Shown here: in pieces, positions 10,194 through 43,323 of the stretch | Layout of the letters: the number at the start of each line of letters is the position of its first letter | How positions within the stretch are numbered: the first letter of the stretch is position 1 | Source: Candidatus Omnitrophota bacterium | GTDB taxonomy: Bacteria > Omnitrophota > Omnitrophia > Omnitrophales > Aquincolibacteriaceae | Direction of reading: 5' to 3' | NCBI GenBank assembly: GCA_016930235.1 | Contig: JAFGHI010000047.1 | Location: forward strand, 86,215-150,214 | DNA: 64,000 nt | Made by a program: the position numbers and the translations under genes | Notes under the pieces: model-generated | What the model was told of the DNA's origin: nothing | The model's input: the letters and a program-made list of their open reading frames with translations, nothing else | Databases searched by the model: none

Positions 10194-12616
10194 GGCATAT
10201 ATTCCGGAACCATCGTTTTTATTTTTTCGATAACATCATCCCGACCAGCGCCTTGGCGAACGCTTGCCACTAACGACATAATCTGTTCATTAATATCAGA
10301 TGGCGGATCTTGTATCGACTTCCAAATCTTAATCTTCTTATGAGAGGTCGGCATAGCTTCTTCACTATGCATTTCGATCTCTTCATTCAATTTTTCCCCT
10401 GGCCGAAGCCCGATGTAACGGATAGGCACCGCTTCTCTGGGAAGTCCCATTAATTGAACAAGATCCTTTGCTAAATCAACGATCTTGACGGGTTCACCCA
10501 TATCTAAAATAAAAATTTCAGACTTGGATCCCATCGCTGTGGCCTGCAAGATCAGGAAAACAGCCTCGGAAATCTCCATGAAATACCGTTTAACATTGGG
10601 GTCTGTTATGGTGATCGGCCCCCCTTGCTCAATTTGTTTTCGAAAAAGCGGGACAACGCTCCCTTTACTATTGAAGACATTCCCAAATCGTACCGCCATA
10701 AAACGCGTCCCGCTATTCTTCAAGCTTTGAGTATAGAGTTCGGCAATCCTCTTCGTTGCGCCCATAATGCTCCTGGGACGAATGGCTTTGTCTGAGGAGA
10801 TGAGAACAAAACTCTCTGCCCCATGCTCTAACGCCAAGTCCGCCATAATCTTGGATCCGAGAATATTGTTAAAAACCCCCTCCATATAGTGAATCTCCAT
10901 CAACGGGACATGCTTGAAAGCTGCGGCGTGATAAATAACATGAGGTTTGTGGCGTGAAAATATTTTCTGCATCTCATCGTAATTCGTCACACTCCGCAAA
11001 TAGGCAGCAACGCTTGTTTCAGAGGCCTTATTCTGTAAATCCGTCTCAATTTCATAAAGATTGTTTTCGGAATTATCGATTAAAATGAGTTCTTGAGGAA
11101 AATTTTGATGGATAATCTTGCTTAATTCTGACCCGATGGATCCACCCGCTCCAGTAACTAGAATACGTTTATTTTTTAAAAAGTTCTGAATGCCCGTAAG
11201 ATCCGCCTGTACCAGCTCACGACCCAAAAGATCAGAAACTTCAATATTTCGTAAACGCAACGGCAATACCTGTGGAGACATCAAAGGTGATGCATGTGGA
11301 AGAATCCGGCAAATAATATCCAAAGAACGGCAAACCTTAATAATATTTCGAATTTCATCCCCCGAAGCTTCCGGAAGCGCAATAATCACCTCATCTGTTT
11401 TCGTCACCCGGATAACCTGCGCAAGCTGTGTAATCGTTCCGATAACTTTAACGCCATGAATTCTTACACCAATTTTCTGAGGATCATTGTCCACAAATCC
11501 AATCGGCCAATAGCCCAAATCCGGCCGCCGGATATACTCTCTGACCAAGAATTCTCCCGGGTCCTCGGCCCCGACAATAAGAACACGCTTGCGTAAATCA
11601 AACCGGGGCTTGCGCAATTTCTCTGCGGTAACTTTGAAAACAATCCGAAGCCCCCCGAGCGCCATAATCAGCATAAACCAATCAATAATCACAATGGACC
11701 GCGGAATCGGGATGATCTGCAAGAGAAAAGGAACAAGCGGTAACAATAGCGTTCCGACCGAAACAGCTTTAATGATCGAAATTAATTCTTGAATGCCAAG
11801 ATACTGCCATAAACTTTGATAGAGGCCGAAATAGATAAAGCAGGGCGCTCTTAATAAAAATACGAAAGGGATAAGAGTTTTTAAAATCATCATATCGGCA
11901 GGAGGAATATCCCCCTCAAACCGAAGCGCAAAAGCCACATAAAAACTGCCGGTGGAAATAATAAGATCAGCGATAAGAAAAGCAAACCTTCGCCGGCTTT
12001 CAAGGATATATCGAAACTTGATGGAACTTAAAAGAAGAGTTGCAACGCCGCCAAAAAGGAATTTCCAGTCTTTAAAAATATCTTTGTTTCTAACGTACGC
12101 TAAATCAGCCTCTATCTTTTTAGGCAGGATCTTCTTGATGTAAAACTCTTCGACATCCCCTTCCTCAGGAATCATGGATTCTTCATCCCGGTTCGTAATC
12201 TGGTTGGGCCCCATTAACCCAGGTTGTACTTTCAATATTTTTCGTTCCTCTAATGTATATGTCCCTACAATTTCAGGGACTTCCGGACGGGGGCCTACGA
12301 TACTCATTTCTCCTTTAAAAACGTTAATAAACTGGGGGAGTTCATCAATCTTTAGCCATCGCAGCAGCCCTCCGACCTGAGTCACTCTGGGATCATTCCG
12401 ACTTGTTATCTTTGCCCCAACCGTTTCCGCGCTCTCGATCATCGTCCTGAATTTTAGGATATAAAATACCTTACCGTCCTTACCGACTCTTTTCTGTTTA
12501 TAAATAATGGGCCCTGGGGAATCAGAGCGAATCATAATCGCAGCAACCAGCATAATCGGGCTGACCAATAAGAGGCACACAAGAGAGACAACAATATCAA
12601 ACAATCTTTTTGCCAT
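10175..12616 (-). CDS. bifunctional fusion: PglC-type small phosphoglycosyltransferase (N-terminus) + PglF/CapD-type membrane-anchored UDP-sugar 4,6-dehydratase (C-terminus)
   Basis: N-terminus: single TM then IIYKQKRVGKDGKVFYILKFRTM...DELPQFINVFKGEMSIVGPRPEVPE (bacterial sugar transferase signature). Then 4 TM helices. Then ILVTGAGGSIGSEL (Rossmann), HAAAFKHVPL / YxxxK region and GATKR, typical of CapD/PglF/WbpM. Confidence 0.8.
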   Translation of the reverse strand: MAKRLFDIVVSLVCLLLVSPIMLVAAIMIRSDSPGPIIYKQKRVGKDGKVFYILKFRTMIESAETVGAKITSRNDPRVTQVGGLLRWLKIDELPQFINVFKGEMSIVGPRPEVPEIVGTYTLEERKILKVQPGLMGPNQITNRDEESMIPEEGDVEEFYIKKILPKKIEADLAYVRNKDIFKDWKFLFGGVATLLLSSIKFRYILESRRRFAFLIADLIISTGSFYVAFALRFEGDIPPADMMILKTLIPFVFLLRAPCFIYFGLYQSLWQYLGIQELISIIKAVSVGTLLLPLVPFLLQIIPIPRSIVIIDWFMLIMALGGLRIVFKVTAEKLRKPRFDLRKRVLIVGAEDPGEFLVREYIRRPDLGYWPIGFVDNDPQKIGVRIHGVKVIGTITQLAQVIRVTKTDEVIIALPEASGDEIRNIIKVCRSLDIICRILPHASPLMSPQVLPLRLRNIEVSDLLGRELVQADLTGIQNFLKNKRILVTGAGGSIGSELSKIIHQNFPQELILIDNSENNLYEIETDLQNKASETSVAAYLRSVTNYDEMQKIFSRHKPHVIYHAAAFKHVPLMEIHYMEGVFNNILGSKIMADLALEHGAESFVLISSDKAIRPRSIMGATKRIAELYTQSLKNSGTRFMAVRFGNVFNSKGSVVPLFRKQIEQGGPITITDPNVKRYFMEISEAVFLILQATAMGSKSEIFILDMGEPVKIVDLAKDLVQLMGLPREAVPIRYIGLRPGEKLNEEIEMHSEEAMPTSHKKIKIWKSIQDPPSDINEQIMSLVASVRQGAGRDDVIEKIKTMVPEYMPWYFPA

Positions 12617-12640: not shown

Positions 12641-13828
12641 TCATCGGCGAAAGCCCTTCACAATGTCACACACGGCAGAAACGACATCGTAAGCATCCTC
12701 GTCTGTCATCTTGGGGTATAGTGGCAATGAAATCATCCGTTGATATTCCTCATAAACCACAGGAAAGTCTTCTGGTTTAAACCCATAATTATTCCGATAA
12801 TAGGGATGCAAATGAATGGGAACGTAATGAACGCTGCTTCCGATATTCCTGCCCCGCAGCTCTTGAATAAATTGATCCCTCGAAAGAGAAAGTCGCTCCA
12901 AATTCAAGCGCAGGATATACAAGTGCCAGGCATGATCGACCCCTGTTTTTTCAGTCGGAATTTCAATTTCTCCAAGCTGAGAAAACGCCTGATGATAAAT
13001 TTTAACAATCTGTCTTCGGCGATCCATAAATTGAGGAAGTTTTCGCATTTGATGGATCCCGATCGCTGCTTGAAGGTCCATCATATTGTACTTAAACCCG
13101 GAAGCAATAACTTCATAATACCAGCTCCCTGTCTCAGAATAACGGTCCCAGGCATCGCGATCAATCCCGTGAAGGCTGTAAACTCTCGCTTTTTCAACCA
13201 AATCCCGACTCCCGGTTAACATCCCGCCTTCTCCGGTCGTCATATTTTTGGTAGCGTAAAAACTGAAGGCCGTCAAATCACCTATCGCTCCGATCATACG
13301 TCCATTGAATTTGGCTGGAATAGCATGAGCTGCATCTTCTAAGACGAACAACTGATACCGCTTGGCTAAATCCATAATTAAGTCCATATCACAAGGATGT
13401 CCAGCAAAATGGACAGGAAGAATTGCTTTAACTTTTTTATCTCTTGTTTTCCTAAGATTTTCTTCGATCTTGAAAGGGTCAATATTGAGAGTATCGCGCT
13501 GGATATCGACTAAAAGAGGAGTTGCACCCACCTGCTCGATTACGTGAACTCCTGAACAAAACGTCATGGGAGTCGTTATCACAACATCCCCTTGACCAAT
13601 TCCCATAGCTGCCAATGCAGTATGAAGCGCCCCGGTCCCGGAACTTAACCCCAACGCAGCTTGAGCTCCAACCAAACGGGCAAATTCTCCCTCAAATTTT
13701 TTAGTCCTCGGTCCGGTTGTGATCCAGTCGGATCGAAGAGTCTCGATCATTTCGATGATTTCCTCTTCCCCTAAAAGCGGAGGGGAAAAAGGCAGGAACG
13801 TTTGTCTTGGCTTCGTCTGGCCGCTCAT
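12641..13828 (-). CDS. DegT/DnrJ/EryC1/StrS-family PLP aminotransferase (PglE/WecE-like UDP-4-keto-6-deoxy-sugar aminotransferase)
   Basis: LPFSPPLLGEEEI...DWITTGPRTKKFEGEFARLVGA; SFYATKNMTTGEGG (PLP lysine region). Confidence 0.9.
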   Translation of the reverse strand: MSGQTKPRQTFLPFSPPLLGEEEIIEMIETLRSDWITTGPRTKKFEGEFARLVGAQAALGLSSGTGALHTALAAMGIGQGDVVITTPMTFCSGVHVIEQVGATPLLVDIQRDTLNIDPFKIEENLRKTRDKKVKAILPVHFAGHPCDMDLIMDLAKRYQLFVLEDAAHAIPAKFNGRMIGAIGDLTAFSFYATKNMTTGEGGMLTGSRDLVEKARVYSLHGIDRDAWDRYSETGSWYYEVIASGFKYNMMDLQAAIGIHQMRKLPQFMDRRRQIVKIYHQAFSQLGEIEIPTEKTGVDHAWHLYILRLNLERLSLSRDQFIQELRGRNIGSSVHYVPIHLHPYYRNNYGFKPEDFPVVYEEYQRMISLPLYPKMTDEDAYDVVSAVCDIVKGFRR

Positions 13829-14550
13829 TTTTTCTCCGGCAGTTGTTTGATAAAATAATACTTGAACAATGTCAGAACCGCAAAAAGAAAGTCTTTAGCC
13901 TTGATCTTTTTACCTTCCTTCGAGGTCCTGCCTTCATAAGAGATAGGCAGCTCCATAATCCGAATACCCTTCTTAGCTAAGAGCGCAGTCACTTCGGGCT
14001 CGAATGAAAAACGATTTGCCTTAAGGGCGAGATGTTTGACAATATCAGCTCTAAAGACCTTGTAGCAAGTCTCCATATCGGTCAATGGAAGTTTAAACAA
14101 TAAATTAGTCAGAAATGTCAAAAAACGGTTTGCCATCCAATTAGGCCAAGCCATTCCTTTGGGATAACAGCATCCGAGAAAACGGCTCCCATAAACGACG
14201 TCGGCTTCACCCTTTAAGATAGGGTCCAATAATTTTGGTATCTCCGACGGCTTATATTCAGTATCGGCATCTTGGATAACAATCAGTTCCCCATGCGCTT
14301 GGCGAATTCCCTTCCGGATCGAATAGCCTTTCCCGCGATTAATTCTATTTTTAAATAAACGGATATTATTGTCCTCGTGCCTATTCTTTAATCTGATCAT
14401 CGTTTCCTTTTCATAGGTTCTATCAATGGAGGCATCATCGACGATAATGATCTCATGCGCAATAGGATATTTGACCGATTGCACATAATGGATAAGCTGT
14501 GCAATGGTATTATGCTCATTATACGTAGGGATAATGATTGACAATTTCAT
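13825..14550 (-). CDS. glycosyltransferase family 2 (polyprenyl-phosphate sugar synthase-like)
   Basis: MKLSIIIPTYNEHNTIAQL...IIIVDDASIDRT...VIQDADTEY (DXD). Start taken at the internal ATG, which forms an ATGA overlap with the upstream gene; the ORF-track start is 14652. Confidence 0.85.
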   Translation of the reverse strand: MKLSIIIPTYNEHNTIAQLIHYVQSVKYPIAHEIIIVDDASIDRTYEKETMIRLKNRHEDNNIRLFKNRINRGKGYSIRKGIRQAHGELIVIQDADTEYKPSEIPKLLDPILKGEADVVYGSRFLGCCYPKGMAWPNWMANRFLTFLTNLLFKLPLTDMETCYKVFRADIVKHLALKANRFSFEPEVTALLAKKGIRIMELPISYEGRTSKEGKKIKAKDFLFAVLTLFKYYFIKQLPEKK

Positions 14551-15257
14551 CCTCGTTCCGGCTCCCACCGAATAAGCCCGACATAATGTGAATTCATGAA
14601 CGGTATTCTCGATAAGACCCTGCATACTCCCAAGAATTTGGGCGCTAACCATCTCGCAAGAAAGGGGATCAAAGTTGCCTTTTTTAGGATAACTTTAGCT
14701 CCCGGAAATAATTTTCGGATCTCGCTTCCAGTAATCCCTTTAACGTTTCTATTCTTTGGGTTGTCGTATCGGAAATCATACCACAAAATAACGCCATTCT
14801 CTTTTAATACACGCCTCATTTCGTGAGCAATTTTTTGTTTTAAACGAGGATCTAAAATCGATGTAAACATCGTTGATTGCAAAACCACGTCGAAAAACTT
14901 ATCCGGCCAGGGTAAATTTTCGGCGTTCCCAGGGGATAAATTCGCATTTGGCAATACGGCCTTGGCTTTCTCAATAAGATGCGTCTCTAAATCAAGACCG
15001 TAAAGATTTTTCTGAGGGACATCCCAATTTGAAAAATCCTCGAGCCAAATGCCGGATCCACACCCCACTTCCAGGATTTTTTTGTTTTCTAATGGCAAAA
15101 TTTTCGCCACCTTAAGGAGCTCCAACATTTTCTCTTTTCTTTGATCATACATCAATCGATTTCCGGGCTGTTTTAAGGAGTAGAATGCAACGGGAATTTC
15201 CCTGGCCCGGCGATCGTATTCTTTCTTGATCCTTTCGATTTCCTTATTCTCGGTCAT
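14547..15257 (-). CDS. class I SAM-dependent methyltransferase
   Basis: ILEVGCGSGIWLEDF (motif I), downstream acidic motif II. Confidence 0.8.
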   Translation of the reverse strand: MTENKEIERIKKEYDRRAREIPVAFYSLKQPGNRLMYDQRKEKMLELLKVAKILPLENKKILEVGCGSGIWLEDFSNWDVPQKNLYGLDLETHLIEKAKAVLPNANLSPGNAENLPWPDKFFDVVLQSTMFTSILDPRLKQKIAHEMRRVLKENGVILWYDFRYDNPKNRNVKGITGSEIRKLFPGAKVILKKATLIPFLARWLAPKFLGVCRVLSRIPFMNSHYVGLIRWEPERG

Positions 15258-18651: not shown

Positions 18652-19409
18652 TCAGTTTCCCACAACAAAACATACTTCAAAAAAACATATAAAGCCACAA
18701 GATGAGCATAGAAAAATCCATGCAATCCATCCCTGAATCCAGCTTTTAAAAAATATCGGTCAAGAAAAACAACGAAGGGCTTGATCACAATATCAATCCA
18801 ACAAAATTTTCGCCCGGCTTTTAAGAGTTCTCCGCATTCATACCGCATATATCTTTCATACTTGAAGAGGTAGGAACTTATTCCTTTAAAATCATTATGG
18901 ATAAAATGTGTTTCCATTCTCTTGACTCTCCCAGGGACAATGAGTCTTGCGTGGACCTCTTTTGTCTGGAATTTCCCCTTATCTCTCCTGAATAAACGAA
19001 CATGATAGTCTGGGTAAAGCCCTCCGTAACGCAGCCATTTGCCATAAAAAAGATTTTTGAACCGGAACTCATAAGCATCCACATCCTGTCCCTGGCACTT
19101 TAGAGCTTCCCGAATTTCTTTTTCACCTCCGAGGTCTAATACTTCATCCGTATCAACCTGCAATACCCATTCATATTCGCATTGGGGGATCGCCCTATTT
19201 TTTTGCGCCGCTGAATTGATGTAAGGATGCTGCAAGATACGATCTGTATATTCGCGGCAGATTTCCAATGTTTTGTCCGTACTAAACGAATCGACAACCA
19301 GAATTTCATCCGCCCATTTGATCGATTCCAAAGTTTCACGGATAGTCCCCTCAGCATTATAGCAAGGCAAAAGAACTGTTATTTTTATGTCCTGCCTTTC
19401 CTGTTTCAT
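18630..19409 (-). CDS. glycosyltransferase family 2 (LPS-core-type)
   Basis: KITVLLPCYNAEGTIRETLESI...ILVVDSFSTDKTLEI...LQVDTDEV. Confidence 0.8.
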   Translation of the reverse strand: MKQERQDIKITVLLPCYNAEGTIRETLESIKWADEILVVDSFSTDKTLEICREYTDRILQHPYINSAAQKNRAIPQCEYEWVLQVDTDEVLDLGGEKEIREALKCQGQDVDAYEFRFKNLFYGKWLRYGGLYPDYHVRLFRRDKGKFQTKEVHARLIVPGRVKRMETHFIHNDFKGISSYLFKYERYMRYECGELLKAGRKFCWIDIVIKPFVVFLDRYFLKAGFRDGLHGFFYAHLVALYVFLKYVLLWETEWKKKTK

Positions 19410-20194
19410 GTCTTCGCCTTTAAGAATTTTTCGGCAAGCGCCTTCATAGCATATTCCAGATCATAAGCTCCGCTCACTTTCCGTTGAAATACATCCAAAC
19501 CATCGCTTCCCAGTACCTTATCGCGATTAAGAAGATAAGGATTAGCATGATAACTATTCCCTCTAAACCCACCTACCCTAACAGCACATTGATAACCACT
19601 CTCTTCTACTGTCTTCAGCTCACGTTTACCGTAAAGCCCGCCGGGATAAGCAAAAGATTTGACCTCAACATTCAAATGGTTTTCAATAATTTTTTTGGAA
19701 CCCCCGATTTCTTCCTCCAAATTCTCATCCGATAATGTTCTTAAATCATTATGATGATTGCTGTGAGCACCTATCTCGGCACCTTCTTGGACTAAAAAAC
19801 GTAAATCTTCCCACGCAAGAAGCGGTTTATCCTGCCCATAACGGCTCCAATCGCTCACTCCCCCGATCTTCTTTGCAACAACAAAAATCGTTGCGGGGAA
19901 ATGATATTGCTCAAGAACCGGCCATGCATTATGCTTAAAATCCAGATACCCATCATCAAACGTAAGACAAAGGGTGTCTTTTAAATCCTCATGCCGAATT
20001 AATCGTTTTACGACTTCCGATAACGGTAAAACCCGGTAATGCGCTTTTGAAAGAATTTCCATTTGTGATTGAAATAATTCGGGCTGTACGGCTAGAGGAT
20101 TTTGGGGCTCTTTTGAAATGCTATGATACATGAGAATCCTAAAATGATTTCTCCCAAACATCTTAGCGAAATTATCAATCATCATGCTTTGCAT
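19406..20194 (-). CDS. polysaccharide deacetylase (NodB-homology, CE4)
   Basis: LCLTFDDGYLDFKHNAWPVLEQYHFPATIFV...GAHSNHHNDL (TFDDG and H-x-x-H motifs). Confidence 0.8.
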   Translation of the reverse strand: MQSMMIDNFAKMFGRNHFRILMYHSISKEPQNPLAVQPELFQSQMEILSKAHYRVLPLSEVVKRLIRHEDLKDTLCLTFDDGYLDFKHNAWPVLEQYHFPATIFVVAKKIGGVSDWSRYGQDKPLLAWEDLRFLVQEGAEIGAHSNHHNDLRTLSDENLEEEIGGSKKIIENHLNVEVKSFAYPGGLYGKRELKTVEESGYQCAVRVGGFRGNSYHANPYLLNRDKVLGSDGLDVFQRKVSGAYDLEYAMKALAEKFLKAKT

Positions 20195-20209
20195 CGTAAG
20201 AAACGAAAT

Positions 20210-21706
20210 CTAAATTTTTGTTCCCGGAGTTATCTTTCCAGCCATTTTATAAATCTCAAAAGCCGCTCTTTTTTCGGCAAGAACAACGCTAGCATAAAAA
20301 TAAGCCAAGGCCATCATGGCCCAAAAAGGCGCATATTGCTCCGGCAGATTAAAAAACGGTTGCACAGTTAAAATGGCCAACGCAGCAACTGTGCTCCCCA
20401 CAAAACCGCAAAAATACTCGCGCAGCATACGCGACTTCGTCTTCCTATATTGGGACCATAATCGCCGAACGTTCGATAAAAATAAACTTAAATAAGCAAG
20501 CATTCCAAATATCCCGACATCAGCCCAAATCTGTAAAATATCACTATGCACCAAACCGCTGGAACCCCATCCATTACCTAAAATAGGGCTGTTCTGAACT
20601 ACTGACCATGCATATTTTGCTCTCGCCTCCCTTTCTTTAGCGCTTGAATCCTGTTTCTCTCCATAAATGGTATGCATTCTATCTTTCGCAACTTGCGGTG
20701 CTAAATAATACAAACACATAAGACCAATGACCGCCATGACAAAAAAACGTATCCCTTTGACCGAAAAATATGCCACAAAAGAAATCACGGAAGGAACCCA
20801 AACTCCTCGATGCCCTGAGATATAGATGGCACCCGCCGTAAAGATAAAAGACAAAAACAAAAAGAACCGATGTGTGTTTGTTCTGGAATTTCTAAGTTCG
20901 GCGAAAATTAAGGGGAACCAAATCGCGAGAAATCCAGCCAGCATCGCATTCCCCCAAAAGGCTGCCCCCGCTCTTTTAAATCCTTCCTCTCCTATTGTTG
21001 TTACCTCTTGCAGATAACCACCAAAAATTTTAACATATCCAAGCCCCATATATTCGCTAATCGAAAGAATCGACAAAAAAAGACAAACGGTAGCCATAAT
21101 GGTCAATATATTTTGGACATGACTAACCTCATGAACCATCCTTCTCACGACAATGTAACAAGGGATCGCTATCCACATCATTTTGGCATAAAATAATGAC
21201 TGGTTAATTTCATCGGGCGTTGAATCGACATACCAACCATTCAACACCGCCCATGCAGAAGACAGTGCCAGGATATAAACTGCCTTGGGAATCTTCGCAC
21301 GAGTCGACTTTACCGGCAAACGAACAAATAAGGCAACAATGGCTAACGCCACAACCAATATTTCACAAGGAACAACTCTGAAATATTTTCCAAAAAACAT
21401 TGTCCTTTGGCCTATGGAGAAAGTAATGAAAAGATAGTACATGATAAAAAGATACGCCTTCCGCGTCCCCATCGCGTAAGCAAAAATAGGCGGCACAATA
21501 ATAATGGCCGCAAAAACAGCCTGGCCCTTAAATGAAAAACTAGCCATCATGAGCCCAACAAATAAAAATATCCCGATAAAATATTGGATTGTCCTGACAG
21601 CTTCTTTTGTTGAGCTCAGCTGACTGACAAGTATTTCACGCATTGTGCGTCGAACTCTAACTTTCGGGGCAATCTGGAATCCCGGCGGTGGAATATTTTC
21701 TGTCAT
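20210..21706 (-). CDS. O-antigen ligase / Wzy_C-family polytopic membrane protein (WaaL-like ligase, O-antigen polymerase or PglL-type O-oligosaccharyltransferase)
   Basis: More than 10 TM helices with a large periplasmic loop carrying ...RGVWVPSV...HNGWGSSGLVHSDILQIWADVGIFG, typical of the Wzy_C domain. Confidence 0.65.
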   Translation of the reverse strand: MTENIPPPGFQIAPKVRVRRTMREILVSQLSSTKEAVRTIQYFIGIFLFVGLMMASFSFKGQAVFAAIIIVPPIFAYAMGTRKAYLFIMYYLFITFSIGQRTMFFGKYFRVVPCEILVVALAIVALFVRLPVKSTRAKIPKAVYILALSSAWAVLNGWYVDSTPDEINQSLFYAKMMWIAIPCYIVVRRMVHEVSHVQNILTIMATVCLFLSILSISEYMGLGYVKIFGGYLQEVTTIGEEGFKRAGAAFWGNAMLAGFLAIWFPLIFAELRNSRTNTHRFFLFLSFIFTAGAIYISGHRGVWVPSVISFVAYFSVKGIRFFVMAVIGLMCLYYLAPQVAKDRMHTIYGEKQDSSAKEREARAKYAWSVVQNSPILGNGWGSSGLVHSDILQIWADVGIFGMLAYLSLFLSNVRRLWSQYRKTKSRMLREYFCGFVGSTVAALAILTVQPFFNLPEQYAPFWAMMALAYFYASVVLAEKRAAFEIYKMAGKITPGTKI

Positions 21707-21721
21707 AATTTCTCTGTATAT

Positions 21722-22588
21722 CTATCCATAAAGAAAAAACCCAAAAAGGATTAGCCAAAGAATGAATGTCCCAATCATCCCTTTATCTCGCAAGAAAATC
21801 CTGATAGGGTCTTCTCCCTTATTTTTTTCAATAACTAAAAACAAATACCGCATGACACCATAAATCACAAAGGGCACCGTAAAATAAAGTTTGTTGCCTG
21901 AATAATAGATTGCTTGTTCAGAAACAGTATACAGTATGTAGGTAAGAATTGCGGCCGAAGACATGATGACTAAACACAAATCCAAATAAGGTACGCTATA
22001 GCTTGATAATACCTTCCGTTGTTTGTTTGCTTTCTTCTGCATCAGCACAAGTTCGCTGCGTCTTTTACCAAACCCAACAAACATGGCCAATAATCCTGTA
22101 CAAATAATGACCCAATGAGAAAGAGCAACCTCCACCACAAGGGCCCCCGCTAGCAGTCGGAATATATAAAAAAGGCTGAAGCAAACAACATCAACGATGA
22201 CAACCTGTTTGAGATAACAAGAATAAAGCCAGTTAATAATAATCACAAAAATCATTAAAATACCTAATTGCACATTGATACAAAAAGCAAAGAAGAGAGA
22301 AATCAACGCGAGGATGAGAACCGCCGCCCAACCTTTACGGAAAGACAACTGACCGGATGCAATGGGTCTTAGTTTTTTAATGGGGTGAAGCCTATCATTC
22401 TCGTAATCTAAGATATCATTGAAAATATAAACAGCGCCCATCATCGCCGTGTAAGTCAAAAAGACCAAAATAGAGCTGATTGCGAGATCTATCCTAAGAA
22501 GACGTAAACCGAAAACAAGCGGGACAAAAACAACAATATTTTTCACCCACTGCCTTGGTCTCATGCTAAGCAATATGGCTTGTATCAT
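21722..22588 (-). CDS. UbiA-family prenyltransferase, decaprenyl-phosphate 5-phosphoribosyltransferase-like (polyprenyl-P + PRPP)
   Basis: RPRQWVKNIVVFVPLVFG; YIFNDILDYENDRLHP (NDxxDxxxD); second Asp-rich motif; 8-9 TM helices; 288 aa. Confidence 0.7.
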   Translation of the reverse strand: MIQAILLSMRPRQWVKNIVVFVPLVFGLRLLRIDLAISSILVFLTYTAMMGAVYIFNDILDYENDRLHPIKKLRPIASGQLSFRKGWAAVLILALISLFFAFCINVQLGILMIFVIIINWLYSCYLKQVVIVDVVCFSLFYIFRLLAGALVVEVALSHWVIICTGLLAMFVGFGKRRSELVLMQKKANKQRKVLSSYSVPYLDLCLVIMSSAAILTYILYTVSEQAIYYSGNKLYFTVPFVIYGVMRYLFLVIEKNKGEDPIRIFLRDKGMIGTFILWLILFGFFLYG

Positions 22589-22839
22589 TTTATCCTTTGA
22601 CTAAAGCTTGAAAAAGACGACCCCATAACTTCTAAATATATTTTCCACGCTGATTCTTGATGCCCAACCGCCGACAGATGAATCCCGTCACAAAAAAATT
22701 CCTCTACTCTATTATTTAGTATCGGCTCCAAATCTAAAATCGACACCCCATCTCGTCGACATAAAACCTTAACAGAGTTCATAGCGCAGATCTCTAACAT
22801 ATTTGATATAAAGCAGTTAACGCAATTCTTGCTTTGCAC
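22585..22839 (-). pseudogene. possible remnant of an SGNH/GDSL hydrolase C-terminus (84-codon ORF) between a methyltransferase and the UbiA gene
   Basis: FFCDGIHLSAVGHQ resembles SGNH block V (DGxHxxxxG). No block I Ser-containing N-terminal part. A 93-codon signal-peptide-like ORF (22817..23098) overlaps the methyltransferase 3' end in another frame. Confidence 0.25.
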
Positions 22840-22844
22840 AAAAG

Positions 22845-23690
22845 CTATGCCTTTTTTGTCGCTTTAACAACCAGGTTAATGAATCGACGATTCGAATTAG
22901 ATGGTTCCGAAGCTTTCCCAAACCACTGAAATATTTTTGTCCCCAAGAATATGGGATTCCAAAGGGATATTTTCCCTTCGCCGAAACGAATCTTTCGGGC
23001 GAGTTTCCCTTGATCACCGGATAGCCCCCTTCCGATTCTGTAAATAAAGAAATGAGCGAAAGGAAAGCAAGAAGCTGAGGATAAAGAAACTTTTTCAACG
23101 CGAAATCCGGCTTGATAACATTTCTTTTCTATCGATCCCCGGGCATAAAGCCTTTCGTGATTTGTCCATGCGCCGGAAAAAACTCCCTTCCGCCACGGCG
23201 TTAACCCAAAAAATTCTCGGATTTTATTCAAGGGATCCCAGCAGAAGGGATAATCTTTATAAGGCACAGAGATTGATAGGACTCCTCCGGGCTTGAGAAC
23301 GCGGAATAATTCTTGAAGCGCTAAGAAGTCATCCTCAAGATGCTCCAGCAATTCAGAACAAATAATTTTGTCAAAACTCGCATCTAAAAAAGGAAGTTTT
23401 AAAACGGATCCTTGTACAAATCGATTACCCGCCCCCGCAACATCCTTCGCTGTTTTTAATCGCATGCTATCAAAATCAAGACCTATAAGAGATAACGACG
23501 GGTCAATTTTTTTGACTAAAGCCATCATCGTTCCAAGCCCGCACCCGCAATCCAAAACCTTCTCATTCTTTTGAAAATTCAAATCCTCCATTATTTGAGT
23601 CACACGTTCACAGTAAGCGACATCAGGCTCGTACTGGAGGTAGTGTTTAATCACAGCCTGAGAAGAAGAAAGATTTGTTTGAGCATCCAT
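22845..23690 (-). CDS. class I SAM-dependent methyltransferase
   Basis: VLDCGCGLGTMMALV (motif I), FDKIICSELLEHLED, LKPGGVLSISVP. Confidence 0.8.
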   Translation of the reverse strand: MDAQTNLSSSQAVIKHYLQYEPDVAYCERVTQIMEDLNFQKNEKVLDCGCGLGTMMALVKKIDPSLSLIGLDFDSMRLKTAKDVAGAGNRFVQGSVLKLPFLDASFDKIICSELLEHLEDDFLALQELFRVLKPGGVLSISVPYKDYPFCWDPLNKIREFFGLTPWRKGVFSGAWTNHERLYARGSIEKKCYQAGFRVEKVSLSSASCFPFAHFFIYRIGRGLSGDQGKLARKIRFGEGKISLWNPIFLGTKIFQWFGKASEPSNSNRRFINLVVKATKKA

Positions 23691-24847
23691 TATGATCTCG
23701 CGATAATCTCTTTGAACAACGATTCATATTCCTCGATAGTTTTTTTATAGCTATAGCATTGTTCAACGGCTTCTCTCGTCTTGATATAAGCAGAAGGATT
23801 ATGAACAATCCGCTCAACAGCTTGGGCAAGCATTAGAGGGTTATCGCATTGAACCACCTCTCCCATTCCTGTAACCCGGACGGCTTCACGCCCTCCAGGG
23901 ATATTGTTCACAATCACCGGGGTTCCACATAACATGGCCTCGACTTGAACAAGCCCCAAGCATTCCGTTTCGCTTGGAAGAACAAGCACGTCACAAGCAG
24001 AATAGAAATCCGCAACATCTTGCTCATTAAGAAGCATTCCCAAAAAAAGAATATCCTTCTCATGCTTCTCGATTAATTCTTTGCATCTTTCGAAGTAATT
24101 TTCGTAAAAGAGTTTGTGTGACCCAGCAAACACAAGCTTAACGGGGCCAATTCTTTCTTTGATCAGAGGAATCGCGCGGATGAGTCGATCCGGCCTCTTC
24201 TCTTCAACAAAACGTCCAGCATAACCCAGGATTATCTGCCCCTCTGCCCCCCACTTCTTTTTTAATCTGACTTTAGCATCCGAGCTTGGAACAGGAATCA
24301 CTGCTGGAGGATAAATCTTAACCGTCTTATTTTGAACGCGCCGCAAAAAACGAGACTGTTCAATATAGTCATGACTATATCCTGTAATTTTTCTTGCGAA
24401 TCGAGCTGCCAAAAAAGAAAGCCAATAAACGGCAGGTTCGACAAACAAACTAACGATTTTATCCTTCGGGAGCGTTAAATCGCCATGATGAGTAATAACA
24501 AATGGCTTACGCATAATTCGGCAAATGGGCGCTGTCCATATCATTTCAAGCGAAGGGCTATGGAGACTTACAGCATCGGCCCATTTAAGCCATGAAAATA
24601 CCTTGAAAAAGAAAGAAGGCGCAATAACACCGCGACTAATCCGAAAAAGAGGTTTGAAACGAATAATCCGCACTCCATCAACCCATTCCTCTTTTGGCTT
24701 CGCACGATCATGCCAGGCTGCCAATACAATCACCTCATGCCCCTTCTGCGCCATGCCACGTGCCATCCGTTCAATATGAAGAGTCATTCCCGTTCGGTGA
24801 GGCAAATAATAAGTCGTGATAATCAATAATTTCATAGGATACCCCAA
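23690..24847 (-). CDS. glycosyltransferase family 4
   Basis: MKLLIITTYYLPHRTGMTLHIERMARGMAQKGHEV...; C-terminal VEAMLCGTPVIVNNIPGGREAV. Confidence 0.85.
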   Translation of the reverse strand: MGYPMKLLIITTYYLPHRTGMTLHIERMARGMAQKGHEVIVLAAWHDRAKPKEEWVDGVRIIRFKPLFRISRGVIAPSFFFKVFSWLKWADAVSLHSPSLEMIWTAPICRIMRKPFVITHHGDLTLPKDKIVSLFVEPAVYWLSFLAARFARKITGYSHDYIEQSRFLRRVQNKTVKIYPPAVIPVPSSDAKVRLKKKWGAEGQIILGYAGRFVEEKRPDRLIRAIPLIKERIGPVKLVFAGSHKLFYENYFERCKELIEKHEKDILFLGMLLNEQDVADFYSACDVLVLPSETECLGLVQVEAMLCGTPVIVNNIPGGREAVRVTGMGEVVQCDNPLMLAQAVERIVHNPSAYIKTREAVEQCYSYKKTIEEYESLFKEIIARS

Positions 24848-26829
24848 ACTCGAAGTTCAACGCCGGGCTCAAACACCTCGAATTCGATTGATTCAATTTT
24901 AACTTCATCCTCCAAACCGTATTCGTAACTATAAATTTTAGCTTCGAAATCGCGCCAGCTTCCCGAGTAGGCTCTTTTCCCGGCCATATGAATTCTCTTT
25001 CTCCAGGAAAATACGGGCTCCGCGGTTTTACCCTTCCGCAATAAATCTTCTTCCATCCAGGAATGGGTTTCCTCCCCCTTAACAATGGGTAGATCCAAAC
25101 GCCCCTCTTTTGAAATAATTCTAATCCGTCCAATCATGACACCATCCGGAATACTCACCGACCCCGTAAGATTCGAAAGAAGGGTAAGATGTTTCGTTGA
25201 AAAATCGTTTTGATAATGAACCTTCTTGATTAATTCGTCGGTGATTGTCAGCGGACCGAGAATCTCAATTTCTTGCCCTTGAACCGACAAGTTGAATGGA
25301 AAATCTAGATCCATAAATTCCATACCCAACAATTCTTGCGGCAAAGGTTTCTGAATCGAAGGGGGCGCCGAATCATTATTTTTTTCATAGATCAACGCGG
25401 TCAAAGGCGGACGGACGATTTTCCTTTTTAAGGTGTATTCATTCTCGACATTCCGTAAAATATTATTTAATTCCTGATGCATCTCTTTTCTGAAATCAAA
25501 GAAAACCAATAATATCCTCGATAAATCTTCCTCTTGTTTCTCAATATTTAATAAATCCCAAGCCGAATGCATATTTTGAAAATCAGAAAAGTAATATCGG
25601 AAATATGGTTCCGCCCGCCCGCCGTAAAATACAGGCAAATCGGTTGTTTCATTTTCCAGAAAAACTTCCATATCATGCCACGATACGCGTTTGCCCGAAA
25701 AGGACCAGTCGCCCTTGAAGTAGCAGAACGAGGCGCCCAGATTAATGAGGATGAGCGCGGTTGAAAATACCAGTGCCCACCTACCTGAAAAACGGCTCAC
25801 TCCAAAACAAAGCGCAAGATAATACACCGGTAATAAAAAGAGAAGGTATCGAAATTGAACACCTGTGGTTTTGGGCGCAAAAGAGTCAAGCCCCAGGACA
25901 ATAAATATGAGAGTAAAAAAGGAAACACCCATAATGGCCTTTAATAATCGATTCTCCTTCATCCTTTGTATAGCGATGAAAAGGAGAACCGCATGGATTG
26001 AAAAAGCAGGAATAACAAGGAACCACAGCATGGGATAAACCGAATTACCGAGCACAAACTGATAAATCGTTATCGCAAGCTTCCCTAGATTAACAATCCC
26101 AAATCCCCTTGACTCGATATATCCGTGAACAGTTACCGCATGAGCATAATGCTGAAGCATATCATGGGCTTTTTCACGAAAAACATAAGCAAACACCAAA
26201 AGGATAAAGACCCCTAATCCGCAAATAATAATCTTCCATAAGCGCCGACGCTTCGAAAGAAAAAATAAGACAAGAAACTGAATGGCCACCAAAAATATCC
26301 CGAAACCATGAGACAAAATACAGAAGATGTCAGCGACACCCCACAAAAGACCTGCTCGAAGACTGCGTTGGAAGTAAAAATACGCAAAGGCCAACCAAGC
26401 AAATGTCGAATTCATCAAAAAGAAACTATAAAATCTTAGAGATTGTGAATGATAAAGAGCCAAGGGAGAAGTCGCAAGAAGGAGCCCGAGCAAAAACCCC
26501 ATTCTTGCATTGATCAAAAGGGAACCCAACATATAGATCAAACAACATGCAAATGCTCCAAAAAGAACAGAAGCAAATCGAAGCCATATCTCCGACGTTC
26601 CAAAAAAAGTCCAAACCTTCATGAACAAAAAATACAGTAAAGAATGGATATTCAATCCGAAGTATTTAATCTCTTCGACCGTATGGAATTCATCTCCGGA
26701 CAAAGTGCAGCGATTTAACCCGACAAGGCGAAATGCCAGAGAGAAAACAAAGAGACCGGCAAAAACAAAAAATAAATTTGTCCTGTTTATCCCCCAGCCC
26801 ACAGAGCTTAATGGAGACCGTAATTTCAT
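24832..26829 (-). CDS. GT-C fold membrane glycosyltransferase (ArnT/PMT, GT39/83-like) with C-terminal periplasmic domain
   Basis: About 12 TM helices; first-loop SGDEFHT (DE motif of GT-C enzymes); about 270-aa soluble C-terminal domain. Start set at the ATG giving an ATGA overlap with the upstream gene; the ORF-track start is 26907. Confidence 0.6.
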   Translation of the reverse strand: MKLRSPLSSVGWGINRTNLFFVFAGLFVFSLAFRLVGLNRCTLSGDEFHTVEEIKYFGLNIHSLLYFLFMKVWTFFGTSEIWLRFASVLFGAFACCLIYMLGSLLINARMGFLLGLLLATSPLALYHSQSLRFYSFFLMNSTFAWLAFAYFYFQRSLRAGLLWGVADIFCILSHGFGIFLVAIQFLVLFFLSKRRRLWKIIICGLGVFILLVFAYVFREKAHDMLQHYAHAVTVHGYIESRGFGIVNLGKLAITIYQFVLGNSVYPMLWFLVIPAFSIHAVLLFIAIQRMKENRLLKAIMGVSFFTLIFIVLGLDSFAPKTTGVQFRYLLFLLPVYYLALCFGVSRFSGRWALVFSTALILINLGASFCYFKGDWSFSGKRVSWHDMEVFLENETTDLPVFYGGRAEPYFRYYFSDFQNMHSAWDLLNIEKQEEDLSRILLVFFDFRKEMHQELNNILRNVENEYTLKRKIVRPPLTALIYEKNNDSAPPSIQKPLPQELLGMEFMDLDFPFNLSVQGQEIEILGPLTITDELIKKVHYQNDFSTKHLTLLSNLTGSVSIPDGVMIGRIRIISKEGRLDLPIVKGEETHSWMEEDLLRKGKTAEPVFSWRKRIHMAGKRAYSGSWRDFEAKIYSYEYGLEDEVKIESIEFEVFEPGVELRVWGIL

Positions 26830-28106
26830 GGCCGCCGTTGACCCTTTAAACGATTTGGCTTTGGCCTCTCTTTGCAGAAACGACTGCGAAAAAAACAGGA
26901 CAGCCAAAAAAGAGCGACAACGATATATGGAAAGATATAAGGTTTAAACGGAGCTAAGTAACGGGGTTCGACATGAAAAGGAATATGTAAAACGGTCATA
27001 TAAATAAAGGAAAACCAAAAAACGGACAAATCCTTTCCCTGTTTGCGGGTAAGAAATAAACCGACAATGAAAAACACCAATAAAGCCGAATCAAAAATAA
27101 CGACCGTCTCGCGCACGGCCGGCCCAGACCGGCTTGGATAACTTATCCACAGCCGGAGCACTCTCACCCCACAGCCCTTGAGATACTCAAGAGGACTCTC
27201 CGTAATACGACTTAAGGTTTCCCGAATATAAAGCGCTTCCAAATCGAGCGAAGGATCTTGTTGATAGGCCGTTTCTAATTTGCGATGGATCTCGTCAAGT
27301 TCGCGTCTTCTCGGATCTTCCGGATCATCCAACCAAAACCCCCAATGCCATAAATCATACTTCTGATCGACTGTCGCAAGAATCAAATTATGTCCCATAT
27401 TCCCTTTTGACAAAGGAATCCATTCGCGAAAGATTAGATAATTGCGAACCGTCCAAGGAGCGAGAACTATAACCATGGACATCACGAGCAAAACTGTGCC
27501 CCAAAACCATTCTTTCCCGCGTATCCCCTGCCAAAACAAATGCATAAGGATGACAGCCGGGAACAACAGCATGATGGGTTTACATAAAACAAGAAGCCCC
27601 AGGGAAAAACCGGTTGCGGTCAAAAAGAACTTTCTGCGGGTTTTGCCATACTGGATCCAGAACAACACCATGAGGGCTGTCAAAAAGATGCTCAAAATCT
27701 CCGTCAAAATACCCGAGGCATAATAGGCCAATGGAAAATAAAGCGCTAAACCAAGACTTGCCCCCAAGCTCACCTTCTCATCAAAAAAATGACGGGTAAT
27801 ATAAAACAATAAAACGCAACACCCTGAAAATATGAACGATTGAAAAATCAAAACGATCATAGGTTGATGCCCAAAAAAGAAATACAAAACGCCCAGGAAA
27901 AGAGGGTAAAGCGGCGGCTTGAGAATTAAAGGGCCTTTAGGCCCTACCAATCCTTTTCCATTTGCGAAATTCCACGCAAAGGTATCATACCAAGAACCGT
28001 CGGCACTCAAAGGCTGCCGATAATGAAAAACATAAATAAACATCAAGGCATGGAGGAGCGCTATGAACGCAATCGCAATAAGTATCATGTTTCTCTTACT
28101 CAGCAT
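26826..28106 (-). CDS. GT-C fold membrane glycosyltransferase (ArnT-like)
   Basis: FANGKGLVGPKGPLILKPPLYPLFLGVLYFFFG (KPPL signature region of ArnT/GT83-type enzymes), 10+ TM helices. Confidence 0.55.
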   Translation of the reverse strand: MLSKRNMILIAIAFIALLHALMFIYVFHYRQPLSADGSWYDTFAWNFANGKGLVGPKGPLILKPPLYPLFLGVLYFFFGHQPMIVLIFQSFIFSGCCVLLFYITRHFFDEKVSLGASLGLALYFPLAYYASGILTEILSIFLTALMVLFWIQYGKTRRKFFLTATGFSLGLLVLCKPIMLLFPAVILMHLFWQGIRGKEWFWGTVLLVMSMVIVLAPWTVRNYLIFREWIPLSKGNMGHNLILATVDQKYDLWHWGFWLDDPEDPRRRELDEIHRKLETAYQQDPSLDLEALYIRETLSRITESPLEYLKGCGVRVLRLWISYPSRSGPAVRETVVIFDSALLVFFIVGLFLTRKQGKDLSVFWFSFIYMTVLHIPFHVEPRYLAPFKPYIFPYIVVALFWLSCFFRSRFCKERPKPNRLKGQRRP

Positions 28107-28911
28107 GTTCTTTCCTAAAAATGCCGAAAAGACTTGTTCCCCATGGAAGGCAGATATTTATCTTCATAATGAGAAAATTTTCCAGCCGAAGGAGGCGAAA
28201 TAGAATCCAGTTAAGCCCGTAGGGTAGTTTATCAATATCGGAAAGCGGCCTGCCTTGAATCTGCCAAAAGACAACTTTCCGAATAATTCTAATGATCGCA
28301 ATGGGTAAAAATGCAAAGAAATTCCAATGCGTCAAACGGACTCTTTTTAATTTTATCCCTGAAAACAATCGAAGAAATGATTTTCTGCTGTAACGCCTGA
28401 CGTGGCCGAGAAAACGGTCATGCGTGCTGTAAAGAAATGGATGCGCGGGAACAGAAAAAACGATATACCCCCCTGTTTTCAAAACCCGCGTCAATTCCTT
28501 CACGGCCTTCTCATGTTCTTGGATGTGCTCTAAAACGTCGAGACAAATAATAAGGTCAAAAGCTTCACTCGCTAAAGGAAGTTGGATAATATCAGCCTGC
28601 ATGCGATTCTCAGGAATTTGACTAACGGCCTTACGGCTGAAATCGATAGCTAAAAATTTCCCATATTGCTCTAAACCGCCCAAATCATCTCCCGTCCCAC
28701 AGCCAGCGTCCAAGCAAAGAATATGTCTGGGCAACTTGAAAGACGCGAGAAGGGCCAAAATCAACTCTTTCCTGCCTCGAAACCACCAGTAGGATCGATA
28801 AATACCAAACGTCCGATAATTATGCAGACTCTCGAAAATATAACGGCTGAGCCTTTCGAAAAGTGTCTCTCGATCGTTCTTCCGTATTTTGATGTGATCT
28901 TTATTGTCCAT
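28096..28911 (-). CDS. class I SAM-dependent methyltransferase
   Basis: ILCLDAGCGTGDDLGG (motif I), FDLIICLDVLEHIQE, LKTGGYIVFSVP. Confidence 0.8.
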   Translation of the reverse strand: MDNKDHIKIRKNDRETLFERLSRYIFESLHNYRTFGIYRSYWWFRGRKELILALLASFKLPRHILCLDAGCGTGDDLGGLEQYGKFLAIDFSRKAVSQIPENRMQADIIQLPLASEAFDLIICLDVLEHIQEHEKAVKELTRVLKTGGYIVFSVPAHPFLYSTHDRFLGHVRRYSRKSFLRLFSGIKLKRVRLTHWNFFAFLPIAIIRIIRKVVFWQIQGRPLSDIDKLPYGLNWILFRLLRLENFLIMKINICLPWGTSLFGIFRKEHAE

Positions 28912-30169: not shown

Positions 30170-30171
30170 GA

Positions 30172-42693: not shown

Positions 42694-43323
42694 TTAAAGC
42701 GGTTGAACACAAGCTTCGTCCACTTGGACTGACACCGATTGCATTAATAAATCAAGCGAGATGACCAAACGGCAGTGCCGATCCTTGCGGACGATATACC
42801 CTTCCGTTCCTTTAAAAGGACCTGTTGAAATATAAACCCGGGCGCCTTCTTTTAAGTAAGGGAACGGATCCAAAGGTATTTCCTCCTCGACAAATTTTCG
42901 AAGACTTACAATATCCTTCTCGGGAACTTCGATCGGATTCGACGGCTTAGGCCCTACAAATCGAACAGCGCCGGCAGTATTTAGCACCTGCCATCTTTCC
43001 TTGAAAGGAATACGAACGAAAAGATACCCTTTGAACAAAGGCTCCTCGATCAATTTTTTGCGATCGGACCATTGCCGTGAAATTCGTCTCATGGGCAGAA
43101 AGGTTTCGATCCCTTTCTTTTGTAATTCCCGATCCGTTAACTTTTCATGCCGGCTCTTGGCATAAAGTGCAAACCAACGTACCTGGTTCCACTTCTTCTT
43201 GATTCCCTCATCCCAAGAAACAGCATTCCAAGATTCTTGCGACTCTTGAATCATGGGATAATCCCCCGTGAAGACAGTTAGAAAACACGGAAATTTATAC
43301 TCATTCTCCCGCGTCTTCCTCAA
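42694..43323 (-). CDS. NusG-family paralog (NGN + KOW), operon-specific transcription antiterminator of the RfaH/UpxY/LoaP type
   Basis: NGN: VRWFALYAKSRHEKLTDRELQKKGIETFLPM...EEPLFKGYLFVRIPF. KOW: EGARVYISTGPFKGTEGYIVRKD. About 40 N-terminal residues fall outside the NGN fold. The ORF-track start is TTG at 43323; an internal ATG lies at about 43254 (MIQESQ). Confidence 0.75.
   Translation of the reverse strand: MRKTRENEYKFPCFLTVFTGDYPMIQESQESWNAVSWDEGIKKKWNQVRWFALYAKSRHEKLTDRELQKKGIETFLPMRRISRQWSDRKKLIEEPLFKGYLFVRIPFKERWQVLNTAGAVRFVGPKPSNPIEVPEKDIVSLRKFVEEEIPLDPFPYLKEGARVYISTGPFKGTEGYIVRKDRHCRLVISLDLLMQSVSVQVDEACVQPL

Follow-up and report, generated by a model that had tools for sequence, protein, structure and literature searches.

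How an uncultured bacterium might finish an exported glycan with a sugar drawn from a membrane lipid is the question raised by a glycan locus of a Candidatus Omnitrophota bacterium (GenBank assembly GCA_016930235.1, contig JAFGHI010000047.1). The window analyzed here is the stretch of 64,000 nucleotides at positions 86,215 to 150,214 of the forward strand of that contig, and all coordinates refer to the window unless another locus is named. The glycan locus occupies about 35 kb of the minus strand (8598-43323), and it is home to a gene for a 288-amino-acid (aa) protein of the UbiA family and to genes for membrane glycosyltransferases of the GT-C fold. All of the window features described below lie on that strand. 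Judging from sequence, we put at roughly 0.6 the probability that the locus makes a polyprenyl-phosphate pentofuranose donor, with ribose as the default sugar, which one or more of the GT-C enzymes would use on an exported glycan.

What the UbiA-family protein does is indicated by its relationship to Rv3806c. The gene (21722..22588) is assigned to polyprenyl-phosphate 5-phosphoribosyltransferase (PPPRS, or DPPRS where the lipid is decaprenyl phosphate), a member of the UbiA superfamily, by NCBIfam model NF008977, by the Rv3806c structure (PDB 8j8j), and by its active-site residues. The protein scored 246.3 bits against NF008977, above the curated equivalog cut-off of 234, and it scored 192, 176, and 137 bits against other DPPRS-type models. 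Models for quinone, heme, chlorophyll, and archaeal-lipid prenyltransferases, by contrast, gave at most 53 bits (best, 52.6). The 8j8j sequence aligned with residues 3 to 283 (E value of 9e-35, 30% identity), and a hydropathy scan revealed nine hydrophobic segments, or about nine transmembrane segments, in line with the nine-helix UbiA fold. The protein carries no fused phosphatase domain. It is annotated by NCBI as "decaprenyl-phosphate phosphoribosyltransferase" and is a divergent member of the family, as no other sequence exceeds 42% identity to it.

The residues that bind phosphoribosyl pyrophosphate (PRPP) are likewise retained. In Rv3806c, the Mg and ribose ligands are N73 and D77, the 5'-phosphate is bound by K28, Y70, and Y157, the pyrophosphate is bound by a cluster of R22, K87, R90, K143, Y138, and K208, and the lipid phosphate is bound by K28 and K191 (PMC10994848). 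Adding D74, D81, and the ribose contact Q135 to these four groups gives 15 functional residues, and 14 of the 15 were identical in the UbiA-family protein when mapped through the alignment. Among those kept are the Mg ligands (N57 and D61), the residues for the 5'-phosphate (K16, Y54, and Y141), R10, K71, R74, and K127 in the pyrophosphate cluster, and the lipid-phosphate-binding lysines (K16 and K175). The NDxxDxxxD loop is present as N57, D58, D61, and D65 and is invariant in 147 family representatives, across which 11 of the 15 functional positions are invariant or nearly so. The one exception, Q135, is replaced by N119, and asparagine is the commonest residue at that position among the same representatives. 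Because phosphoribose-binding residues set phosphoribosyltransferases apart from true prenyltransferases, they exclude, together with the hidden Markov model (HMM) scores, identity as a quinone or heme prenyltransferase, and the candidates UbiA, MenA, and CyoE were rejected on both grounds. The first-pass annotation of this DNA had placed the protein with the decaprenyl-phosphate phosphoribosyltransferases and had named clustering with quinone or heme enzymes as the alternative; the placement in the Rv3806c clade holds, with DPPRS models at 137 to 246 bits and the PRPP residues kept, and the alternative is not the case. In all likelihood, the enzyme attaches ribose phosphate to a lipid carrier in the membrane.

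Some homologs of the enzyme have a neighbor that is absent from the window. A DUF362 gene lies directly downstream of the UbiA/DPPRS homolog in four loci that are unrelated to one another (L008, 10935-12221; L013, 9755-11035; L022, 10915-12147; L025, 8884-9960). Two come from metagenome-assembled genomes (MAGs), one of the Planctomycetota and one of the Phycisphaerae, and the other two from unclassified metagenome contigs.

What might use the lipid product is suggested by two GT-C genes nearby. The first (26826..28106) encodes a GT-C-fold membrane glycosyltransferase of the PMT_2, or "GT39-like," type, recognized by its PMT_2 match and its fold; it is 426 aa long and has no large periplasmic domain, and D36 in its first outer loop is a candidate catalytic acid. 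The second (24832..26829) encodes a paralogous GT-C-fold glycosyltransferase of 665 aa, recognized by alignment, hhalign, and Foldseek, the start of which is most likely the ATG at 26829. In the alignment of the 665-aa family (A2), D46-E47 is invariant after the first transmembrane segment, as are Q129, R132, and Y134. When the alignment of the 426-aa family (A1) was compared with A2 by hhalign, the two matched with a probability of 98.1% (E value of 1.2e-13), and D36 was paired with D46. A PDB sequence search with the two GT-C proteins and with a DUF2079 protein of the same locus gave no meaningful match, and structure prediction and fold search were therefore used for the GT-C proteins. The best 42 Foldseek matches of the 665-aa model were all GT-C enzymes, among them ArnT (5f15; TM score, 0.52). 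Structural matches of the GT-C proteins to ALG12, AglB, and Pmt4 were equal in quality to that of ArnT. In the 665-aa protein, about 200 aa at the C terminus form an extracytoplasmic region (model confidence is low at residues 464 to 665), which had no match in Pfam and might be a carbohydrate-binding module. Three features define PMT_2 (GT39/GT83-like) GT-C enzymes, namely a PMT_2 profile match, the GT-C-A fold, and an acidic residue in the first loop on the extracytoplasmic side, and all three were found. NCBI annotates both proteins as "glycosyltransferase family 39 protein." Thus, the fold matches, the hhalign comparison, and the PMT_2 match agree with the earlier proposal that the neighbors of the UbiA-family gene are GT-C membrane glycosyltransferases.

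Resemblance to ArnT raises the possibility that the two GT-C proteins are ArnT orthologs that belong to a lipid A aminoarabinose pathway. Indeed, their fold is as near to ArnT as to any solved structure, the locus encodes a DegT aminotransferase that scored 368 bits on the ArnB model, and, as in ArnT/GtrC-type systems, which modify glycans in the periplasm with an undecaprenyl-phosphate sugar made by a GT2 enzyme, the locus encodes a GT2 enzyme like ArnC, PpgS, and AglJ along with an ArnD-family type of deacetylase. The ArnB score, however, is far below its cut-off of 631, and the ArnC model gave the GT2 enzyme 59.8 bits against a cut-off of 529. Moreover, neither GT-C protein matched any NCBIfam model, that of ArnT included, and no ArnA formyltransferase/decarboxylase and no ArnT or ArnEF equivalent was detected in the window at curated thresholds. 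Unlike the ArnT/GtrC-type systems, the locus adds a PRPP-dependent donor synthase of the UbiA type. ArnT orthology, which the first-pass annotation had named as a competing possibility, was therefore rejected on the lack of an NCBIfam match, the lack of ArnA, and ArnB and ArnC scores under cut-off. That the UbiA homolog is an aromatic or heme prenyltransferase after all, as its superfamily membership might allow, or that the GT-C proteins are ArnT orthologs, we consider highly improbable, given prenyltransferase scores of at most 53 bits versus 246 for DPPRS, the retained phosphoribose-binding residues, and structural matches to ALG12, AglB, and Pmt4 that are no worse than that to ArnT.

How a PPPRS and a GT-C enzyme cooperate is known from Citrobacter youngae O1 and O2. 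There, a homolog of Rv3806c serves as the PPPRS and makes a polyprenyl-phosphate ribofuranose (Ribf) donor, as established by genetics and in vitro, a MATE protein is proposed as the donor flippase on bioinformatic grounds, and a GT-C enzyme of family GT136 adds alpha-Ribf to the O antigen after polymerization, as established in vitro (PMC11127046). Optional epimerases lead to xylofuranose (Xylf) or arabinofuranose (Araf), the GT136 enzyme accepts more than one pentofuranose donor, and loci with several GT-C enzymes are mentioned, with an earlier case of Araf on the pilin of Pseudomonas aeruginosa cited (PMC11127046). Kelly et al. (PNAS, 2024) report such three-component pentofuranose systems to be widespread in Gram-negative bacteria (PMC11127046), and a PNAS commentary repeats their account.

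The window resembles the three-component systems, of which ORF15-ORF14-ORF12 of C. youngae is the model, in several ways. Both have an Rv3806c-type UbiA-fold PPPRS with the N-D-x-x-D-x-x-x-D loop, GT-C enzymes in the same locus, a Gram-negative host, an ATP-binding cassette (ABC) exporter, multi-module GT4 enzymes, and methyltransferases. The window differs in that its PPPRS lacks the fused HAD "PRP" phosphatase and in that neither a MATE/SMR flippase nor an epimerase is encoded within the 64 kb. The GT-C enzymes differ as well. Those of the window match PMT_2, whereas GT136 genes are mostly annotated as hypothetical and are described as unlike any existing GT family; this difference, drawn from descriptions of annotation, argues against membership of the window enzymes in GT136, the C. 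youngae representative of which (ORF12) has D31, E34, H106, and R349 as conserved residues. The mycobacterial pathway (Rv3806c, Rv3807c, DprE1/DprE2, and Rv3789) compares in a similar fashion: its first enzyme is homologous over the full length (30% identity, 14 of 15 residues) and its downstream users, Emb and Aft, are of the GT-C fold class, but the DprE1/DprE2 pair by which it reaches decaprenyl-phosphate arabinose was not found in the window.

The same comparison bears on novelty. The UbiA-family enzyme belongs to a large family, with 1,981 clusters at 50% identity (E value of at most 1e-30), and homologs, often annotated as DPPRS, are found on 100 plasmids (Rhizobium, Vibrio, Burkholderia, Lactococcus, haloarchaea, and others). 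It had been suggested that pentofuranose decoration would be unusual in a Gram-negative polysaccharide locus, but with the precedent of Kelly et al. and a family of this size, the claim of rarity no longer holds. We conclude that the functions first assigned to these genes are probably right and that the claim of novelty is out of date. A study of 2024 had already documented this type of pathway for Gram-negative bacteria, and the locus is a new example of it rather than a new mechanism.

Whether the UbiA-family enzyme supplies these particular GT-C enzymes is a separate matter, and their pairing is unproven. What speaks for the link is a single packed gene string, recurrent adjacency in other genomes, and a gene set shared with Chloracidobacterium. 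Junctions in the locus are mostly overlaps or gaps of at most 33 nucleotides (nt), and only two measure 100 to 121 nt. The middle of the locus reads, in order of transcription, methyltransferase, 426-aa GT-C, 665-aa GT-C, GT4, methyltransferase, 84-aa open reading frame (ORF), and UbiA-family gene, and from the first of these methyltransferase genes (28096-28911) through the two GT-C genes to the Wzy_C gene that comes next, genes overlap by 1 to 11 nt or are separated by at most 15 nt. The stop codon of the 84-aa ORF overlaps the start codon of the UbiA-family gene (ATGA), as is seen directly in the sequence, and the Wzy_C gene starts 15 bp downstream of the UbiA-family gene. Scans of the locus found terminator-like sites no more often than expected by chance and no promoter above chance.

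Recurrence was assessed by comparing about 27 loci, a sample that is indicative only, and a scan of a genome collection by close peptide patterns gave 16 loci. A UbiA gene adjoins a PMT_2 gene in three unrelated lineages. In a MAG (L018; UbiA identity of 42%), UbiA is followed by a PMT_2/DUF2298 protein of 1576 aa; in Chloracidobacterium (L020), it is followed by two PMT_2 genes; and in Legionella adelaidensis (L030), DPPRS is followed by a "GT39 family protein," with no GT2 gene beside the pair. The Chloracidobacterium GT-C proteins were matched by HMMs of both GT-C families of the window (35 and 118 bits), and sequence identity between the window GT-C proteins and those of these other pairs is low, at 25 to 29% over partial alignments. 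Chloracidobacterium also shares with the window a deacetylase, a related GT2 enzyme, and DegT: one deacetylase gene lies directly upstream of UbiA, and the GT2 domain related to that of the window is fused to a deacetylase (2735-4405 of that locus) 5.6 kb upstream of the UbiA and GT-C genes. In a further locus (L014), a homolog of the window GT2 lies directly upstream of UbiA. Like the window, the three pairs, all uncharacterized, combine a stand-alone DPPRS with a PMT_2/GT39-like GT-C enzyme and have no adjacent phosphatase, flippase, or epimerase, and Chloracidobacterium is closest in having two GT-C proteins that match both HMMs as well as the deacetylase, GT2, and DegT genes. Unlike in those pairs, the GT-C genes of the window lie upstream of the UbiA-family gene and are separated from it by the GT4 gene, the methyltransferase gene, and the 84-aa ORF.

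Several observations weigh against the proposed pentofuranose donor and its use by the GT-C enzymes. The locus holds a rival maker of lipid-linked donors, a GT2 enzyme (13825..14652) whose best NCBIfam matches are all polyprenyl-phosphate sugar synthases (AglJ, 107 bits; PpgS, 61; ArnC, 60; Dol-P-hexose transferase, 53; all under cut-offs) and which, from its sequence, could make a second lipid-linked donor. Among the GT-C proteins closest to the 426-aa one (44 to 45% identity), an ortholog is encoded directly beside Wzy_C (L034), and another stands in a series of PMT_2, sulfotransferase, PpgS-like GT2, and LPG_synthase_TM genes (L033). Relatives of the 665-aa protein (27% identity) come after a gene for a 280-aa GT2 enzyme in two loci (L036 and L037). 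UbiA is absent from the recovered stretch of all four of these loci (8 kb to either side in L036; the whole contig, of at most 8 kb, in L033 and L037). Since the GT-C relatives occur with no UbiA nearby, UbiA is not required by either GT-C family. Conversely, many UbiA homologs stand alone among housekeeping genes or beside DUF362.

Such observations leave room for a different division of labor, in which both PMT_2 GT-C enzymes would use a polyprenyl-phosphate hexose or aminosugar made by the GT2 enzyme, possibly after de-N-acetylation by the polysaccharide deacetylase family protein encoded at 19406..20194 (Pfam Polysacc_deac_1, 92.5 bits), by the logic of ArnC/ArnD/ArnT or PpgS/Rv3779. The product of the UbiA-family enzyme would then go to the DUF2079 protein, to an enzyme encoded elsewhere, or to another envelope structure. 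The recurrence of GT2 followed by PMT_2, the GT2 gene in the sulfotransferase-containing series, and the presence of a deacetylase and a GT2 enzyme in Chloracidobacterium too are consistent with this arrangement. The GT2 scores, however, are far under curated cut-offs, and no membrane anchor is predicted for the GT2 enzyme. Moreover, the only established users of polyprenyl-phosphate pentofuranose are GT-C enzymes, the UbiA-family gene sits in the same packed string as both GT-C genes, and UbiA directly adjoins PMT_2 GT-C genes in three other lineages, the Legionella pair having no GT2 beside it. We consider an exclusively hexose- or aminosugar-fed pair of GT-C enzymes somewhat unlikely.

Other points on the same side of the balance concern what the proposed pentofuranose pathway would need in addition. 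The 64 kb were searched with Pfam on all ORFs of at least 120 aa, with a hydropathy scan, and by tblastn with probes from reference loci: DprE1-like and DprE2-like proteins from a Flammeovirgaceae plasmid (L028), HAD-UbiA and EamA from a Vibrio plasmid (L029), and HAD-IB and GtrA from a Lactococcus plasmid (L032). No phosphoribose phosphatase of the HAD/PRP or PAP2 type was found in the window by Pfam or by tblastn with the HAD domains of the Vibrio and Lactococcus plasmids, nor did Pfam, hydropathy, or tblastn reveal a flippase there (GtrA, EamA, MATE, or SMR) or any small ORF of the multi-pass type. Complete reference modules, in contrast, carry phosphatase and flippase in cis, as in the order DPPRS, HAD-IB, and GtrA on the Lactococcus plasmid and in the HAD-UbiA fusion followed by EamA on the Vibrio plasmid.

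Which pentofuranose the donor would carry depends on epimerases. No DprE1/DprE2 pair was found in the window: no ORF matched FAD_binding_4 or ALO, the only short-chain dehydrogenase/reductase (SDR) domain is part of a PglF-like dehydratase, and the DprE1-like and DprE2-like probes gave best E values of 0.8 and 0.065. Ribofuranose is thus the default sugar, and the first-pass annotation, which had noted no such pair and had supposed a ribose-based donor, is upheld for the 64 kb by Pfam and tblastn. The alternative is that DprE1/DprE2 or an SDR like ORF13 is encoded elsewhere and that the donor becomes Araf or Xylf, as in mycobacteria, the P. aeruginosa pilin system, and C. youngae O2. The window, after all, covers 64 kb of the 208-kb contig and the MAG itself is incomplete, DprE1-like and DprE2-like genes directly follow DPPRS in L028 and in L016/L017, and the relaxed donor choice of the GT136 enzyme would accommodate such a change. 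Against an epimerized donor stand the lack of an epimerase in the window and a rough neighbor-joining tree (no bootstrap; indicative only), in which the window enzyme groups with Chloracidobacterium and Nitrospirota homologs and with P0003. No member of that group has adjacent DprE1/DprE2 genes, and epimerase-linked homologs fall on other branches. An epimerized donor is therefore distinctly unlikely, and we retain ribose as the default in what follows.

How the pathway with a ribose-based donor would work can be laid out in three steps. On a polyprenyl carrier, the locus would assemble a heavily methylated glycan, and the lipid-linked pentofuranose would come from a side branch. First, in a step well supported by homology, the UbiA-family enzyme, working on the cytoplasmic side of the inner membrane, would take ribose-5-phosphate from PRPP, place it on polyprenyl phosphate (presumably undecaprenyl phosphate), and release pyrophosphate, as Rv3806c and ORF15 of C. 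youngae do. Second, the 5-phosphate would be removed and polyprenyl-phosphate ribofuranose would be flipped to the periplasmic face, presumably by proteins encoded outside the window. Third, as the fold, the conserved acids, the adjacency elsewhere, and the precedent suggest, at least one GT-C enzyme would add the pentofuranose after export, and any other GT-C enzyme of the locus may draw on a second donor, made by the GT2 enzyme like PpgS, AglJ, and ArnC. The locus thus encodes at least two candidate makers of lipid-linked donors, the UbiA-family enzyme and the GT2 enzyme, and two GT-C enzymes confirmed by fold plus a possible third. That third is the DUF2079 multi-pass membrane protein encoded by the last gene of the locus (8598..10193; Pfam DUF2079, 112.6 bits). 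It is weakly similar by BLAST to the PMT_2 protein of L036 (E value of 1e-4), and hhalign of DUF2079 against the A1 GT-C profile gave no significant match; it is possibly a GT-C-like enzyme.

The GT2 enzyme and the deacetylase together suggest a second route, like that of ArnC and ArnD, to a lipid-linked aminosugar donor. We speculate that a stand-alone PPPRS, a PpgS/ArnC-like GT2 enzyme with a deacetylase, and two paralogous PMT_2 GT-C enzymes could form a conserved finishing module with two donors, common to Omnitrophota and Acidobacteriota (Chloracidobacterium), which would add both pentofuranose and aminosugar to an exported glycan. Such a module would do without a dedicated phosphatase and flippase, either through the ABC transporter of the locus or by transfer of ribose-5-phosphate itself. 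As a whole, this proposal is doubtful, and we offer it with little confidence.

The remainder of the locus is in keeping with polysaccharide export and is described here in order of transcription. The first gene (42694..43323) encodes a NusG-like antiterminator of the UpxY family (NF033644, 143.8 bits; cut-off, 100). Members of that family are known from the capsule loci of Bacteroides. The antiterminator gene is followed by that of the sole transporter of the locus (40692..42572), an ABC exporter or flippase of the HepA/MsbA/PglK type with Pfam ABC_membrane and ABC_tran domains and with NCBIfam scores of 508 bits for HepA, 405 for MsbA, and 237 for PglK, all under cut-off. Three multi-module proteins come next (GT4 with an FkbM methyltransferase, GT4-GT4, and GT4-GT4-methyltransferase), and then further methyltransferase, GT4, and GT2 genes. 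The three multi-module proteins, which are Leloir enzymes, measure 707, 847, and 1002 aa, respectively. They fall within the stretches 33058-40681 and 14547-33024, and the locus contains at least seven S-adenosylmethionine (SAM)-methyltransferase domains. Multi-module Leloir enzymes and methyltransferases point to a heavily O-methylated glycan and an export route of the ABC-transporter type.

In the middle of the locus, a SAM-dependent methyltransferase (28096..28911; Pfam Methyltransf_11, 71.7 bits) is encoded directly 5' of the GT-C pair. Between that pair and the UbiA-family gene lie a GT4 Leloir glycosyltransferase (23690..24835; Pfam Glycos_transf_1, 113 bits), called as 381 aa on an independent assembly, a second SAM-dependent methyltransferase (22845..23690; Pfam Methyltransf_11, 72.4 bits), and the 84-aa ORF (22585..22839). 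The 84-aa ORF carries a "DGIHLS" motif and has as its sole match a weak one to the last 43 positions of Lipase_GDSL_2 (E value of 0.046), and it is probably the C-terminal remnant of an SGNH/GDSL esterase. On the 3' side of the UbiA-family gene follow genes for a Wzy_C-domain membrane protein, the polysaccharide deacetylase, GT2, GT4, GT9, GT2, and methyltransferase. The Wzy_C-domain protein (20210..21706; Pfam Wzy_C, 45.1 bits versus 31.7) is of the O-antigen ligase, O-oligosaccharyltransferase, or polymerase type. PMT_2 GT-C genes also lie directly beside Wzy_C in L034 (627-3215) and L036 (13678-16588), and this adjacency may reflect a functional link of GT-C enzymes with a ligase or polymerase step. 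The locus ends with the GT2 gene like PpgS, AglJ, and ArnC, the DegT aminotransferase gene, a fusion of a phosphoglycosyltransferase and a dehydratase, and the DUF2079 gene. The fusion protein (10175..12616) joins, by Pfam, a PglC-like initiating phosphoglycosyltransferase (Bac_transf, 193.7 bits) to a PglF-like 4,6-dehydratase (Polysacc_synt_2, 348.7 bits), and it matched TIGR03025 with 318 bits against a cut-off of 295.

Outside the locus, two ORFs on the same strand drew attention. One (48829-50214) encodes 461 aa, equal to DprE1 in length; it has no Pfam or NCBIfam match and no FAD-binding signature, and it was unmatched by the DprE1-like probe. The other (54989-63976) is at least 2,995 aa long and extends to within 24 nt of the end of the window. 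Its recognizable parts are a SAM methyltransferase domain, HEAT and TPR repeats, and a stretch that resembles Glu/Leu/Phe/Val dehydrogenases, and about 1,000 of its residues match no family.

What the locus means for the organism follows from the proposed pathway. If the reading is true, an uncultured member of the Omnitrophica would carry, on an envelope glycan or a protein-linked glycan, ribofuranose or another pentofuranose that is added outside the cytoplasm. A pathway proven in Citrobacter, Pseudomonas, and mycobacteria would then reach the candidate phyla related to the Planctomycetota-Verrucomicrobiota-Chlamydiota (PVC) group. The value of the example lies mainly in annotation and comparison, as the UbiA-family gene had already been correctly named by the NCBI pipeline. 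Ultimately, the locus would represent a minimal form of the pathway, a PPPRS with a PMT_2-type GT-C enzyme and no dedicated phosphatase, flippase, or epimerase nearby, and the same minimal form occurs in Legionella and Chloracidobacterium.

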